61,105 nucleotides of DNA. Origin: Candidatus Melainabacteria bacterium GWF2_37_15 (GTDB taxonomy: Bacteria > Cyanobacteriota > Vampirovibrionia > Gastranaerophilales > UBA9971). The notes under the pieces are model-generated. The model saw nothing but the letters and a program-made list of their open reading frames with translations. It was not told where the DNA came from and made no database searches. Position numbers and translations under genes: made by a program. Where the stretch lies: positions 1-61,105 of the forward strand of contig MFRL01000064.1 in NCBI GenBank assembly GCA_001784565.1, read 5' to 3'. Shown piece by piece: positions 4,177-61,105 of this stretch (the stretch's first letter is position 1; the number at the start of each line of letters is the position of its first letter).

Positions 4177-4248
4177 ATTTTTTCATTTATACTGTTAACA
4201 TTTTTTTTCAGTAGCTTTATATATGTGAGGCTACTAAAGGAGTAGAAA

Positions 4249-5247
4249 ATGTTACAATTTACTACACAATACATACCATTAAGACTACCTGTAAAGCAAA
4301 GCGTAAATTTTGGGATGGCTTTTGCCGATCCAATTAGTTGTTATGAGCCAATAAAGAGTAACTGTACTCTAACAGAGCCTATAATGGATTCAATGAAAGA
4401 TCAAAGAGTAGGTCACAATGTTATAGCTCCAGAGCCTATTGAAGCCAAAACATTTACTGCTGGAAACAATTTTCATGGGCAAAGTATAATGTCTGAAACT
4501 ATCACTATGGGCAATGATGCTTACATAAGTAATTTTATTTCCGCAGATACAGTTGATTTAAAAGATAACGCTACTATTATGGGCGAGGTTACAGTATCCA
4601 GAGGTTTAACAGCAGGACATAAATTCACCGCCGAATATGTTGAAGCTAATACAGTTAATTTAAAAGATGGTGCTGATATTGCTAATGGAGTTTTCGCAAC
4701 AGGATTGATTACAATAGATAATGGATTGCATGCTGGATATCTTGAAGCATATAAAGTACATTTAAAAGATAATGCCGTTATTGAGCGTGATGCTGCAGCA
4801 TGTAGAGAGTTTATAGCAGGTAATAATACTGAAATATACGGATCGGTTAAAGGACATACAGTTAAGTTAGGAGATAATGCTAATATTACGCGTAATGTTG
4901 AAGCTGATAAATGGGTAAAAATTGGGAATCATTTACAGGCAGATTCCATCATTTCTAGCGGTGACGTTTCTCTGGGAAGTATAGATAAATTAAACAAAAT
5001 TTGTTTTGATGAAAACAAAAATACAAGTCCGGATAGAAAATTAATACTTAACAGTGAAGATATAAAACCTGAGAAGAAGATAGAAGTACATTTAGGAGAT
5101 ATTTATTCTCTTGAGATACAAACTCCAACAGGAAATCCAGAGATTCTTAATAAATTTGAATTTATAGATAAATCTACAGGAAATCCAATAACCGACGACC
5201 AACGCAAAGCTATTAAGGTTACCAGGATACCTGAAGCTTCTTGTTAA
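4249..5247 (+). CDS. Hypothetical beta-helix repeat protein (bactofilin/polymer-forming-like)
   Basis: Repeats of V.LKD.A.I...V at ~33-aa period; AAGGAG RBS; N-terminal SVNFG motif; no signal peptide. Confidence 0.6.
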   Translation: MLQFTTQYIPLRLPVKQSVNFGMAFADPISCYEPIKSNCTLTEPIMDSMKDQRVGHNVIAPEPIEAKTFTAGNNFHGQSIMSETITMGNDAYISNFISADTVDLKDNATIMGEVTVSRGLTAGHKFTAEYVEANTVNLKDGADIANGVFATGLITIDNGLHAGYLEAYKVHLKDNAVIERDAAACREFIAGNNTEIYGSVKGHTVKLGDNANITRNVEADKWVKIGNHLQADSIISSGDVSLGSIDKLNKICFDENKNTSPDRKLILNSEDIKPEKKIEVHLGDIYSLEIQTPTGNPEILNKFEFIDKSTGNPITDDQRKAIKVTRIPEASC

Positions 5248-5277
5248 TAATTTCTTAAATATTAATATTTTTTTAAC

Positions 5278-5306
5278 AATTGACGGCGAAACACCCGTCA
5301 ATTTTT
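5278..5306 (+). terminator. Intrinsic terminator
   Basis: AATTGACGG-cgaaacac-CCGTCAATT hairpin followed by a T-run, downstream of 4249..5247. Confidence 0.7.
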
Positions 5307-5375
5307 AATATATAAATTTTTTTATATAAATATATTAAATTTATATAAAGACTAGATAATAGAGGAGTATAAAAT

Positions 5376-58615: not shown

Positions 58616-59020
58616 TTAGTTTTGTTCAGATTCTTTTGTTCTTAAATGGTTTGCAACTAATAAAGCAGCAGCGATACCAGCAGCAATTTTAATAGTTTTA
58701 AGTTGTGGAGTAGCTTTTAAAACTAATTCTTTCGCCATACCAGCTCCTTTAACCATTTGTTTAATTACAGGCTTAGAAGCTAAATATTTTGTAGCTTTTG
58801 TTAAACCTGATTTTGCTGTTGATGCAGCATCTAACATTTTTATTGAATACTTCTTTGTGGCTAAATTATGTGCAAAACTTAGTACTTTTTCTGATCTCAC
58901 CATCTTATCGACAGCCATTGCACCTAACCCTACTGCAGCTACTTCTCCTGCAACAATAGCCCTTTTTTTTGTTTTTTCTGAAAACTGAGGCATTGTTAAA
59001 TTAACCTGTAACTTTTCCAT
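58616..59020 (-). CDS. Basic hypothetical protein with two hydrophobic segments
   Basis: 134 aa, AAGGAG RBS; Lys/Ala-rich; PQFS near the N-terminus. Confidence 0.7.
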   Translation of the reverse strand: MEKLQVNLTMPQFSEKTKKRAIVAGEVAAVGLGAMAVDKMVRSEKVLSFAHNLATKKYSIKMLDAASTAKSGLTKATKYLASKPVIKQMVKGAGMAKELVLKATPQLKTIKIAAGIAAALLVANHLRTKESEQN

Positions 59021-59165
59021 ATAATTCTCCTTTACTGAGATGATCTACCTATTATTTTTTTCCTTCCAATTGTTTAAATGCTGATGAAAAAAAAAGTTGA
59101 CACTTTACAAATAAATATTTAACAAAACTTAACAATAATGTTAGAATTCCAGTAGGAGATTAAAA

Positions 59166-60653
59166 ATGAGACCAAAATTTAAAATATTAATCTGCGCATC
59201 TGAAGTTGTACCGTTTGCAAAAACAGGCGGACTTGCTGATGTAGCAGGTAGCCTGCCAAAAGAACTCAAAAAACTGGGCCATGATGTTAGAGTTGTAATG
59301 CCTAGATATTGGGAAATTGACAAGGAAAAATACGGATTAAAACCTGTACCCGACCCTCTCGGTGTACCAATGGGCGTTATCGGGGAAATGTGGTGCGGTG
59401 TTCTTGAAGGGAAAATTCCGGGAACTGACGTGCCGGTTTATTTTATTGAACATGAACACTACTATGGCAGGAAAAACCTGTACAATGACGATAGCGGCCA
59501 GGGATTTATGGATAATGATAACAGGTTTGTGTTTTTATCACGCGCCTGCCTGCAATTATGCAAAAAAATCGGGTTTTATCCTGATGTAATTCATGCCAAC
59601 GACTGGCAAACAGCAGCAATACCTGTACTTCTAAATACTGCATATAGGCATGATCCTGTCGGTAACGCAGCCAGCGTCCTCACAATCCATAACATGCAAC
59701 ACCAGGGCAGTTTTTATGAAGGATTAATGGATGTACTCGGAATCGGTTGGAAGCATTATAATTTCCTGGAACTTGAATTCAACGATCAGGTTAATCTCTT
59801 AAAAGGTGGAATCCTTCATTCAACGCATATAACAACTGTGAGTGATGGATATGCAAAAGAAATCCAGAGCCATGAACATGGTTGGGGACTTGATGGAGTA
59901 GTAAGAGATAGAGCGGGCAACCTTTATGGCATACTAAACGGCTGTGACTACGATGAATGGAACCCCGAAACCGATAAACACATCATTAAAAACTATTCCG
60001 CAAGTGACCTCTCAGGCAAACTCGAATGCAAACGTGACCTGCAAAGAACTTTTGGCTTGCCTGTAAGAGATGATATACCGCTTTTTGGCATAGTAACACG
60101 GCTTGTAAGACAAAAAGGGGTGGATATACTTGCAGAAGCTTTATATAAGCTAATGGGTCTCGATGCTCAATTCGTACTCCTCGGCACCGGCGAAGTGTGG
60201 TCGCATTTTTATTTCGGCGGCGCACCAGGAATGTTCCCTGAAAAAGTTGGTGTTAACATTGGTTTTAGTAACGAATTGGCACACAAAATCGAGGCTGGTT
60301 CTGACTTTTTCCTCATGCCGTCAAGATTCGAGCCATGCGGTTTGAACCAGATGTACAGCCTGAGGTATGGTACTTTGCCAATTGTACGAGCAGTAGGCGG
60401 TTTAAATGACACTGTTGAGAACTTTAATGAGCAAACACTTGAAGGGAACGGTTTTAAATTCCATGACCTGACCCCTAATGCCTTGTTTGATACAGTCGGC
60501 TGGGCAACATACACTTATTATCATAATAAACCTGCAATGAAAAAGCTTATTCAGAACGCCATGAACAAGCGCTTCACATGGGAGGACGCAGCAAGGAAGT
60601 ACGATGATGTTTATTATCTTGCTGTACGCAACAGGCGCAACATTTATATTTAA
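59166..60653 (+). CDS. glgA: Glycogen synthase
   Basis: SEVVPFAKTGGLADV, HANDWQT, TIHN, QKG.D, MPSRFEPCGLNQ, GGL.DTV. Confidence 0.97.
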   Translation: MRPKFKILICASEVVPFAKTGGLADVAGSLPKELKKLGHDVRVVMPRYWEIDKEKYGLKPVPDPLGVPMGVIGEMWCGVLEGKIPGTDVPVYFIEHEHYYGRKNLYNDDSGQGFMDNDNRFVFLSRACLQLCKKIGFYPDVIHANDWQTAAIPVLLNTAYRHDPVGNAASVLTIHNMQHQGSFYEGLMDVLGIGWKHYNFLELEFNDQVNLLKGGILHSTHITTVSDGYAKEIQSHEHGWGLDGVVRDRAGNLYGILNGCDYDEWNPETDKHIIKNYSASDLSGKLECKRDLQRTFGLPVRDDIPLFGIVTRLVRQKGVDILAEALYKLMGLDAQFVLLGTGEVWSHFYFGGAPGMFPEKVGVNIGFSNELAHKIEAGSDFFLMPSRFEPCGLNQMYSLRYGTLPIVRAVGGLNDTVENFNEQTLEGNGFKFHDLTPNALFDTVGWATYTYYHNKPAMKKLIQNAMNKRFTWEDAARKYDDVYYLAVRNRRNIYI

Positions 60654-60724
60654 CTTATTGACTTCTTTCCATGGTTGTACTAAATCTAATAGATATAAGT
60701 TAGATATAGGGAATGAGGTAGGAT

Positions 60725-61105
60725 ATGGAACAAGTCAAACAAGTCAGCTTTGGAACAAACATAGTAATTCTTAAAAAAATTAGAAGGCTTCCTGGATATG
60801 CACAAGACGCCATGAAAATAACTGCATTGCAAAGAAGGGCTAAAGCTGATGGTATAGATTTAAAAATGAAGGCTGATTTATATAGTGGTGAAACAAAAGG
60901 CAAAAGAAGAGCATATATAGCTGCAGAAGTTATTCATCCTGAAGGAAAATTTAAAAAATTTGTATACCCTGGTAAGGATAATAGAATGGTAGAAAACCCA
61001 TCATTTATGGATAGGGTAGCACTGCTATTTCCTAAACTGCAGGAATTTCACAAACCTTCACTGGAAAACAATCCATACGGAACGAATAGAGTATTTGAAA
61101 GAATC
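60725..61105 (+). CDS. Hypothetical protein (5' part, runs off window; not in ORF track), paralogue of 56485..56973
   Basis: MEQVKQVSFGTNIVILKK...KPSLENNPYGTNRVFERI; GAGGT RBS; upstream DNA similar to that of 56485. Confidence 0.8.
   Translation, partial: MEQVKQVSFGTNIVILKKIRRLPGYAQDAMKITALQRRAKADGIDLKMKADLYSGETKGKRRAYIAAEVIHPEGKFKKFVYPGKDNRMVENPSFMDRVALLFPKLQEFHKPSLENNPYGTNRVFERI

Follow-up and report, generated by a model that had tools for sequence, protein, structure and literature searches.

A two-box promoter-like motif precedes mostly unannotated genes across the order Gastranaerophilales

The hrp box, which is read by the extracytoplasmic function (ECF) sigma factor HrpL, has the consensus GGAACC-N16-CCACNNA. 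The HrpL regulon of Pseudomonas syringae and Dickeya is reported to combine a dedicated promoter with a large number of fast-evolving genes that vary among lineages; many of the products lack known domains and have a compositional signature at the N-terminus (PMC3879358, PMC2957411). The attack-phase regulon of Bdellovibrio bacteriovorus, which depends on FliA (sigma-28), is reported to be one alternative-sigma class that switches on numerous genes together, including many uncharacterized ones, in a life-style program (PMC3627812). The group-5 sigma factors TcdR, BotR, TetR, and UviA are described as recognizing a -35 element TTTACA and a -10 element GTTATA and as carrying an SRQ motif in region 4.2 (PMC4031146). 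In the present study, we describe an oriented two-box DNA motif that precedes genes in a stretch of 61,105 nt (contig MFRL01000064.1, GCA_001784565.1; hereafter the window) and throughout the Gastranaerophilales genome to which this stretch belongs, and we compare it with these systems.

The Gastranaerophilales, which are related to cyanobacteria, live in gut and groundwater and are uncultured; to our knowledge, nothing is known about the control of transcription in this order. A literature search, which mostly covered journals outside subscription, revealed nothing on promoters or sigma regulons of Gastranaerophilales and nothing on the motif word itself. The assembly analyzed (Gastranaerophilales, Melainabacteria) consists of 2.27 Mb in 102 contigs, with a G+C content of 36.9% and a completeness of 91.9%; the window is its contig C64. 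The nearest named records for RpoD of this genome belong to Candidatus Gastranaerophilales, Melainabacteria, and Vampirovibrionales assemblies (79-91% identity in the best segment), and DNA of the window occurs in groundwater metagenome runs; no run of RNA was among those listed. Genes were called with our own simple codon-usage caller of open reading frames (ORFs), which yielded 2364 calls, and 1107 upstream regions with a gap of at least 60 nt were examined genome-wide.

The genome-wide consensus of the motif, obtained from a listing of 50 regular-expression matches, was tAGCAATTTTT-N8-10-(t)GTTTTTATATA(w)ATAAG. The upstream box is (A/G)(G/T)CAATTTTT, in which C and AA are the informative letters and a T-run follows, and the downstream box is (t)GTTTT(T)ATAtA.ATA. 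An earlier reading of the window, made without database searches (hereafter the sequence-only reading), had given the upstream half as GTNAA; this form differs from the upstream box seen genome-wide, and the present consensus is far sharper. Expectation-maximization motif searches that assumed a zero-order background ended in GC-rich segments or in unspecific AT-rich profiles. They were replaced by spacing histograms, regular expressions, and a two-block position matrix, which was derived from the genome-wide motif and used with a spacer tolerance of ±2. The 8-mers enriched in the sense orientation in the 1107 upstream regions included CAATTTTT (84 sense and 47 antisense), GTTTTATA, and TTTTATAT. 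CAATTT and TATAWW stood 24 nt apart in upstream DNA 25 times in the sense and 10 times in the antisense orientation, while distances of 23 and 25 nt were found nine times and twice, respectively, in the sense orientation.

Twenty-nine of the 50 regular-expression matches were intergenic and in the sense orientation, at most 150 nt from a gene. The matrix detected 156, 107, and 79 matches in the genome at thresholds of at least 16, 20, and 24 bits, respectively, versus 14, 7, and 1 in a control sequence obtained by shuffling the genome within blocks of 150 nt so that dinucleotides were preserved; these ratios are somewhat inflated because this genome also served to train the matrix, a bias from which the regular-expression counts and the counts across genomes are free. 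The concern attached to the sequence-only reading, that shuffled upstream DNA might carry the motif equally often, did not materialize: 111 of 1121 upstream regions of 130 nt scored at least 14 bits and 122 scored at least 12 bits, versus 2 and 6 of 1121 after mononucleotide shuffling. Among the 156 genomic matches, 124 were intergenic, 32 were inside called ORFs, and 104 were located sense-upstream of a start at no more than 150 nt. Measured from the last base of TATAtA, the distance to the start codon peaked at 20-40 nt and ranged from 1 to 148 nt; this preferred but variable distance fits a promoter, not a translation signal. An oriented motif of two boxes with fixed spacing, located just upstream of genes, is also what is generally expected of promoters of the alternative sigma-70 family. 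Sites of at least 14 bits fell into two spacing classes. In the long class A (n=74), the C of CAAT was 25 nt from the ATA of the downstream box; in class B (n=53), which is 1-2 nt shorter, this distance was 23-24 nt, one T fewer preceded ATA, and CAGG or ACGG often stood before it.

Genes behind the motif were markedly poor in known families. For a Pfam scan (E ≤1e-5), the 60 best motif genes located outside the window were taken with their surroundings as 57 regions, and the sample comprised all 63 motif genes there and the first 150 of 194 non-motif neighbors with a coding score of at least 20. Ten of the 63 motif genes had a Pfam family versus 119 of the 150 neighbors (Fisher p = 3e-18). 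The corresponding numbers for proteins of at least 150 aa were 9/42 and 96/112, and 42 of 58 neighbors with an upstream gap of at least 60 nt had a family. The families of the ten motif genes were CheR, GntR, sigma-like (two genes), GNAT, a receiver domain, CAT, a pseudouridine synthase, a calpain-type protease, and VanY. In agreement with the sequence-only reading, which had not noticed the motif before housekeeping genes, the recA, secY, dnaB-type, and ribosomal-protein neighbors were all in the set without the motif, and none of 31 tRNA upstream regions exceeded 5 bits (best, 5.0). No BLAST paralogue was found in the genome for 73 of 104 motif genes, which indicates that gene duplication is not the source of the repeated motif. 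The coding score per codon was the same for motif genes and other genes. The motif-gene products were polar, with N-termini rich in N, S, Q, and P; an N-terminal hydrophobic core was present in 3/94 of them versus 435/2033 other products, and a membrane-like segment in 12/94 versus 499/2033. To judge from these features, the motif set looks like a program of soluble, non-Sec, fast-evolving proteins, together with a few hydrolases, acyltransferases, and regulators. The putative regulon in this genome would comprise about 100-130 transcription units, or roughly 5% of the genes.

The regulon is a feature of the whole order and is not peculiar to the window or to this genome. A strict pattern, GCAATTTT-N9-13-GTTTTTATA, had 12 matches in this genome and between 1 and 40 in every one of 40 relatives, which represent 10 families (41/41 genomes), almost always with N12, while the reversed pattern gave 0-1 matches. 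In a phylum-wide sample, 36 of another 40 genomes of the order had the strict pattern. Among 80 Cyanobacteriota that do not belong to the order, four had a single match, in all cases at an off-type spacing (lengths of 27, 27, 28, and 30 nt versus 29). Since the relatives are non-independent kin, these counts show breadth and are not a statistical test, and conservation before orthologues is more telling. Among 17 homologues in relatives of gene 27576, which is preceded by the strongest site of the window, 12 had the motif (14.5-30.9 bits; families f1, f4, and f6) at 31-55% protein identity, and the spacers had diverged while the motif was kept. The relation of the 27576 product to SprA comes from a weak Pfam match and from the ESM Atlas (feature score 0.93, TM 0.61). 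Its relatives carry HExxH-type strings, and the SprA-related pair 27576-28163(+) and 18594-19079(-) may therefore possibly be metalloproteases. The motif also stood upstream of a protein of 62-66 aa that by eye is ribbon-helix-helix-like (MARVLISMPDEFL...SELIREALR...) in four families, including this genome; by its appearance, it may be a regulator that itself belongs to the regulon. The sequence-only reading had proposed a dedicated promoter class for orphan genes. The enrichment over shuffled DNA, the placement, the Pfam contrast, and the conservation support such a promoter-like class, which is bipartite, has a consistent orientation, and is strongly linked to genes that lack known domains.

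The motif shares with sigma-70/sigma-A promoters two boxes of about the same geometry and an A at the second position of the downstream box. The consensus TATAtA keeps this A and mostly ends in A, a comparison whose register depends on the start site. In contrast to these promoters, the motif has a different -35 box and an extra conserved G+T-run upstream of the -10 element. Its upstream box is (t)aGCAATTTTT and not TTGACA-like, TTGAC at canonical spacing was not enriched, and TTGACT occurred at only the site before 56485, which fails the motif matrix. Use in core genes was likewise not seen, as the tRNA regions and the Pfam contrast described above indicate, and the motif does not fit the housekeeping sigma-A class. 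Several tRNA genes have TTGACA-N17-TATAAT upstream. The sigma-28 (FliA) class, TAAA-N15-GCCGATAA, was rejected because its box is absent from the motif; TAAA-N13-17-CCGATA was found before only five genes here, all with a motif score of 0. Two helical-hairpin paralogues differ in what precedes them: a sigma-28-type box at C27:20394-20747(+) and the motif at C10:32503-32931(-) (24.2 bits). Six flagellin-like genes all had a motif score of 0, and a flagellar regulon was discarded as an identity for the motif set. The present set therefore differs from the Bdellovibrio FliA regulon, in that its motif is not a sigma-28 box and the flagellin genes lack it.

The promoters of group-5 sigma factors (PMC4031146) resemble the motif in being AT-rich and two-boxed, in a -10 region composed of G, T's, and ATA, and in serving a special gene set, which there encodes secreted proteins. 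They differ in having TTTACA in the place of GCAAT and in belonging to another host phylum. The SRQ marker of region 4.2 was absent from the eight sigma proteins of this genome that were aligned, a set from which two ECF-type sigmas were left out. The GCAAT box and the lack of SRQ in the aligned sigmas place the motif outside the group-5 (TcdR-like) class, and in letters it appears nearest, not equal, to TcdR-group promoters. In its logic, the motif set resembles both the HrpL regulon and the Bdellovibrio FliA regulon, and with the former it shares the property that promoter and N-terminus can be used to list its members. However, the consensus of the hrp box is unrelated to the motif, and the candidate sigma here is group-2-like, not of the ECF type.

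We propose that the motif represents a dedicated class of promoters in the Gastranaerophilales, which is likely read by a holoenzyme containing an alternative sigma-70-family factor, with the sigma encoded on contig C56 as the best candidate. This proposal is drawn from sequence comparisons, and we assign it roughly even credence. RNA polymerase with such a factor would read TATAtA as the -10 element, and the conserved G+T-run would cover about -17 to -13. GCAAT(T) would form a non-canonical -35 element 17-19 bp upstream, and transcription would start at a purine approximately 7 nt past TATAtA, within the conserved ATAAG. The sigma inventory of the genome comprises RpoD (C22), the group-2-like C19 and C56 proteins, a SigF-like protein, FliA, a small FliA-like protein, ECF-type sigmas, and two divergent tandem proteins on C69. 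The reader would be a group-2-like sigma that is restricted to the order and is encoded at C56:16650-17531(-). In the helix that reads the -35 element, this protein has TKEC(I/V)RQTE where RpoD has TRERIRQIE, and in region 3.0 it has KIPVY where RpoD has RIPVH, so that Y replaces the histidine of RIPVHM; the aromatic stretch YATWWI(R/K)Q of regions 2.3-2.4 is retained. We take the altered residues to correspond to E. coli sigma-70 contacts with the -35 hexamer (R584, E585, R586, R588, and Q589) and the extended -10 element (H455). Altered in regions 4.2 and 3.0, the C56 sigma would fit a new upstream box, the G+T-run, and a TATA-type -10 element. The exact C56 helix was found as one copy in each of 41/41 genomes of the order and in 0/80 genomes outside it; a further count gave 35/41 relatives. 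The C19 group has the canonical -35 helix. A fourth, conserved group-2 sigma orthogroup (OG2) was present in 5/5 relatives and had no orthologue in this 91.9%-complete assembly, which makes it an unlikely reader of the motif.

Several points weigh against this proposal. Genus g22 lacks the exact C56 helix in all three of its genomes, yet these have 10-18 strict motif matches. The link between sigma and motif consists of a co-distribution in one order, which amounts to a single evolutionary event, and of reasoning about residues of E. coli sigma-70. The motif was not found upstream of the C56 sigma gene in this genome or in five relatives, so that no sign of autoregulation was seen. The implied -10 hexamer ends in A, not T, and GCAATT as the -35 element gives class A a spacer of 19 bp, which is long for the sigma-70 family. 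In addition to the training of the matrix on the same genome, all gene calls come from our own caller. A sigma-28 box before the orthologues of the C56 sigma gene was a separate idea, which was dismissed because CCGATA was found in 2/5 relatives at off-type spacing and not in this genome.

The motif may instead comprise sigma-A promoters with an activator, in which the housekeeping sigma reads TATAtA, and GCAAT near -36 is the site of a class-II-type factor that replaces the -35 contact. The near-consensus TATA(A/T)(A/T) in the downstream box favors this explanation, as do the regulators among the motif genes; candidate activators inside the regulon are the 62-aa ribbon-helix-helix-like protein, the GntR-type protein, and the response regulators. 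The motif before the ribbon-helix-helix-like orthologue in four families could mean feedback. A precedent is provided by Clostridium autoethanogenum, in which a new promoter motif is reported to be activated by a TetR-family protein with sigma-A (PMC6873888). However, the upstream box lacks the dyad or direct-repeat symmetry usual for such regulators, and the G+TTTT(T) just upstream of TATA and the spacing classes 1-2 nt apart are more sigma-like than activator-like. An order-restricted sigma with altered DNA-reading regions also exists. We consider the activator explanation rather unlikely. The two tandem C69 sigmas might also read the two spacing classes and activate themselves. The motif precedes both genes (33.2 and 22.2 bits), their DNA-melting regions have diverged, and two sigmas would match two promoter classes. 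On the other hand, they have very long branches and no orthologue among 30 sigma genes of five relatives, none of which had the motif upstream (best, 9.3 bits). Their best matches in 40 relatives were approximately 40% identical, similar to the match to the genome's own group-2 sigma, and the motif is order-wide, in contrast to the C69 sigmas. In the 354-aa protein, the TRERIRQIE helix is still the canonical one, which speaks for a -35 element of the TTGACA type, and both proteins begin with the same SFG-type N-terminus as regulon products. It is very unlikely that this pair reads the motif; to judge from their sequences, the C69 sigmas look like regulon members, not masters.

The motif might also be no promoter at all but an AT-rich site with a structural role or bound by a nucleoid protein, the remnant of a terminator, or part of a mobile element that lies between genes by chance. 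This would be in keeping with AT-rich DNA (36.9% G+C) and with the 32 of 156 matches within called ORFs. The sequence-only reading had cautioned that some upstream boxes may double as a terminator arm. This is true at 5297, where the terminator hairpin of gene 4249-5247 (5265-5310; TTGACGG...CCGTCAA with a T-run) contributes its 3' arm and T-tract as the upstream box; overall, a stable hairpin ended in the upstream box at only 2 of 103 sites, and a terminator-arm origin was rejected. Strand asymmetry and a fixed orientation to the next gene also speak against a non-promoter element. Conservation is limited to approximately 35 bp without flanking repeats, shuffling that kept the local composition left 14 matches versus 156, and the motif was retained before orthologues whose spacers had diverged. 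We regard such an element as highly improbable. That the motif is simply the general housekeeping promoter of this lineage might be suggested by its rank as the most frequent sharp motif in upstream DNA and by the rarity of TTGAC-N-TATAWW at canonical spacing before protein genes (4 at d=23). However, tRNA genes use TTGACA-type promoters without the motif, and the motif stands in only approximately 10% of upstream regions (111/1121). Known families are depleted approximately five-fold among motif genes, and the ribosomal-protein and other core neighbors named above all lack the motif; the housekeeping explanation is thus extremely unlikely.

The products of motif genes share N-terminal signatures. 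[DSEN]SIF occurred within the first 90 residues in 10/104 motif genes versus 10/2170 others, and [ILV][SA]F[GK] within the first 50 residues in 13/104 versus 32/2170. The two signatures were distributed by spacing class: a ...SIF...-type motif was present in 23/74 class A versus 7/53 class B products, and an (I/V/P)(S/A)F(G/K)-type N-terminal motif in 6/74 class A versus 27/53 class B products (p = 8e-8). The SFG-type leader is borne by unrelated proteins, namely, a CheR-like enzyme, a GNAT protein, a receiver protein, and both divergent sigma-like proteins. Most of 22 CheR-like homologues in other genomes of the order retain it; 5 of the 22 reached 14 bits with the matrix from this genome, and many had a degenerate GCAA-T-run...CAGG...TTTAT. 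A contractile injection system and type IV secretion were rejected as exporters because Phage_sheath_1 and VirB4 had no match in the 91.9%-complete assembly. The flagellar export genes fliPQR are present, and the N-termini of class-B products are similar to the sequence MxI(V/I)N with which the genome's own flagellins begin; export of motif-gene products by the flagellar apparatus is a lead only, based on this resemblance. We speculate that the promoter class, together with SIF (approximately 30-60 residues in) and an M-(I/L/N)-N...(I/V/P)-S-F-(G/K) start, marks a large fast-evolving repertoire that is exported or targeted in a non-Sec manner, possibly by flagellar type III secretion, and that would include proteases, acetyltransferases, the CheR-like methyltransferase, and sigma-like and response-regulator proteins. 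This is a bold conjecture, which we consider improbable. If true, these non-photosynthetic relatives of cyanobacteria would own an effector-like arsenal under one switch, and an interaction-based life style (epibiotic, predatory, or host-directed) would be order-wide.

An order-wide promoter class would tie approximately 5% of the genes, most of them unannotated, into one putative program. With this class, co-regulated genes of the dark matter could be catalogued in any genome of the order, and it offers a concrete candidate sigma-promoter pair that is testable in a heterologous host, together with a possible targeting code on proteins. If the C56 sigma is the reader, the sigma-70 family would gain a new -35 specificity, namely, GCAAT read by a K-E-C-x-R-Q-T helix.

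The sites of the window, the genes behind them, and the C69 and C10 genes discussed above are listed in Table 1. The letters quoted in the sequence-only reading were present in six of its eight main examples; the window has ATTAA at 42950 and ATTGA at 56418. Seven of the 13 sites listed there scored at least 13.5 bits and one scored 12.1 bits (17574), while five were poor (4249, 49219, 56485, 59020, and 1643). The site before 17331(-), which had been called degenerate, scored 30.1 bits. The genes behind the four strongest sites of the window had no Pfam family above the threshold. Over 30 positions, the poor site at 49162..49191 shares 27 with a site of 26.8 bits on contig C51 (hand count), and a paralogue of the gene behind it, on C52, has a 16.6-bit site; from this resemblance, it is probably a decayed class-B member.

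Table 1. Motif sites, genes behind them, and related genes (positions are those of the window unless a contig or locus is given)
Feature	Position	Strand	Description
Site	27519..27551	+	31.4 bits, strongest in the window; GTAAATTTTT-N11-GTTTTTATATAT; downstream box ends 25 nt before 27576
Gene	27576..28163	+	195-aa SprA-related (PF12118-like) protein; N-terminal ...ADSIF...
Site	17358..17390	-	30.1 bits; AGCAATTTTTT-N10-TGTTTTTATTCAT; 27 nt upstream of 17065-17331(-)
Gene	17065..17331	-	88 aa; no Pfam family
Site	5297..5329	+	25.8 bits; GTCAATTTTT-N-TTTTTTTATATAA; precedes 5376
Gene	5376..7055	+	559-aa Ser/Thr-rich orphan; ...GTDSIFK... near residue 40
Site	2115..2147	-	24.9 bits; AGCAATTTTTT..., downstream box weak; 93 nt before 1756-2022(-); absent from the sequence-only reading
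Gene	1756..2022	-	88 aa; no Pfam family; pilin-like N-terminus MNYRKEKGQSLVE... (by eye)
Site	19108..19140	-	15.8 bits; GTTAATTTTT-N-GGTTTTAATATAA; 29 nt before 18594-19079(-)
Gene	18594..19079	-	Paralogue of 27576-28163 (32% identity)
Site	42950..42980	+	Class B, 14.6 bits; ATTAAATTATCTTTTCACGGGTTTTATAAAT; 26 nt before 43006
Gene	43006..43227	+	73-aa orphan; N-terminal ...NRVSFKA... (SFG-type signature)
Site	34095..34128	-	14.3 bits; downstream box 19.1 bits, upstream box absent; precedes 33742-34050(-)
Site	42063..42095	-	Weak, 13.5 bits; before M16 peptidase gene 39178-42018(-); membership in the motif class doubtful
Site	17580..17613	-	Weak, 12.1 bits; before doubtful 57-codon ORF 17401-17574(-)
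Site	49162..49191	+	5.8 bits; probably class B, decayed; precedes orphan 49219-50400
Site	56418..56447	+	5.3 bits; TTGACT-N17-TATATA, housekeeping type; not a member; before 56485
Site	4194..4223	+	2.1 bits; not a member; only the TTTATATA half motif-like; before 4249
Site	before 59020	-	4.1 bits; not a good member
Site	before 1643	-	-3.1 bits; not a good member
Divergent sigma-like gene, 527 aa	C69:16647-18230 (L009:664-2247)	+	Motif 33.2 bits; SFG-type leader
Divergent sigma-like gene, 354 aa	C69:18327-19391 (L008:1195-2259)	+	Motif 22.2 bits; SFG-type leader
Ribbon-helix-helix-like genes	C10:45376-45576	+	Relatives' loci L207, L229, and L233

In the window, ordinary genes are interspersed with many ORFs without a Pfam family; the former include ribonucleotide reductase, a split transketolase, FeoB, rpsP, glycogen synthase, and an FtsEX-type ABC-transporter pair. 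The orphan product of gene 5376 had no homologue at E ≤0.001 among proteins of 307-979 aa. Directly downstream of this gene and a 100-aa ORF, 7581-13037(+) encodes a protein of 1818 aa that consists mostly of EF-hand repeats (Pfam EF-hand_1, 1.5e-59). The gap upstream of crcB (17633-18019) is only 58 nt (17575-17632) and gave no Rfam fluoride-riboswitch match; the 17580-17613(-) site lies in this gap on the opposite strand. At the contig start, 3-1643(-) encodes an RTX-repeat protein that runs off the contig. In its vicinity, 2134-4176(+) encodes a CHASE2-adenylate/guanylate cyclase, and another CHASE2 cyclase adjoins a motif gene on contig C51.

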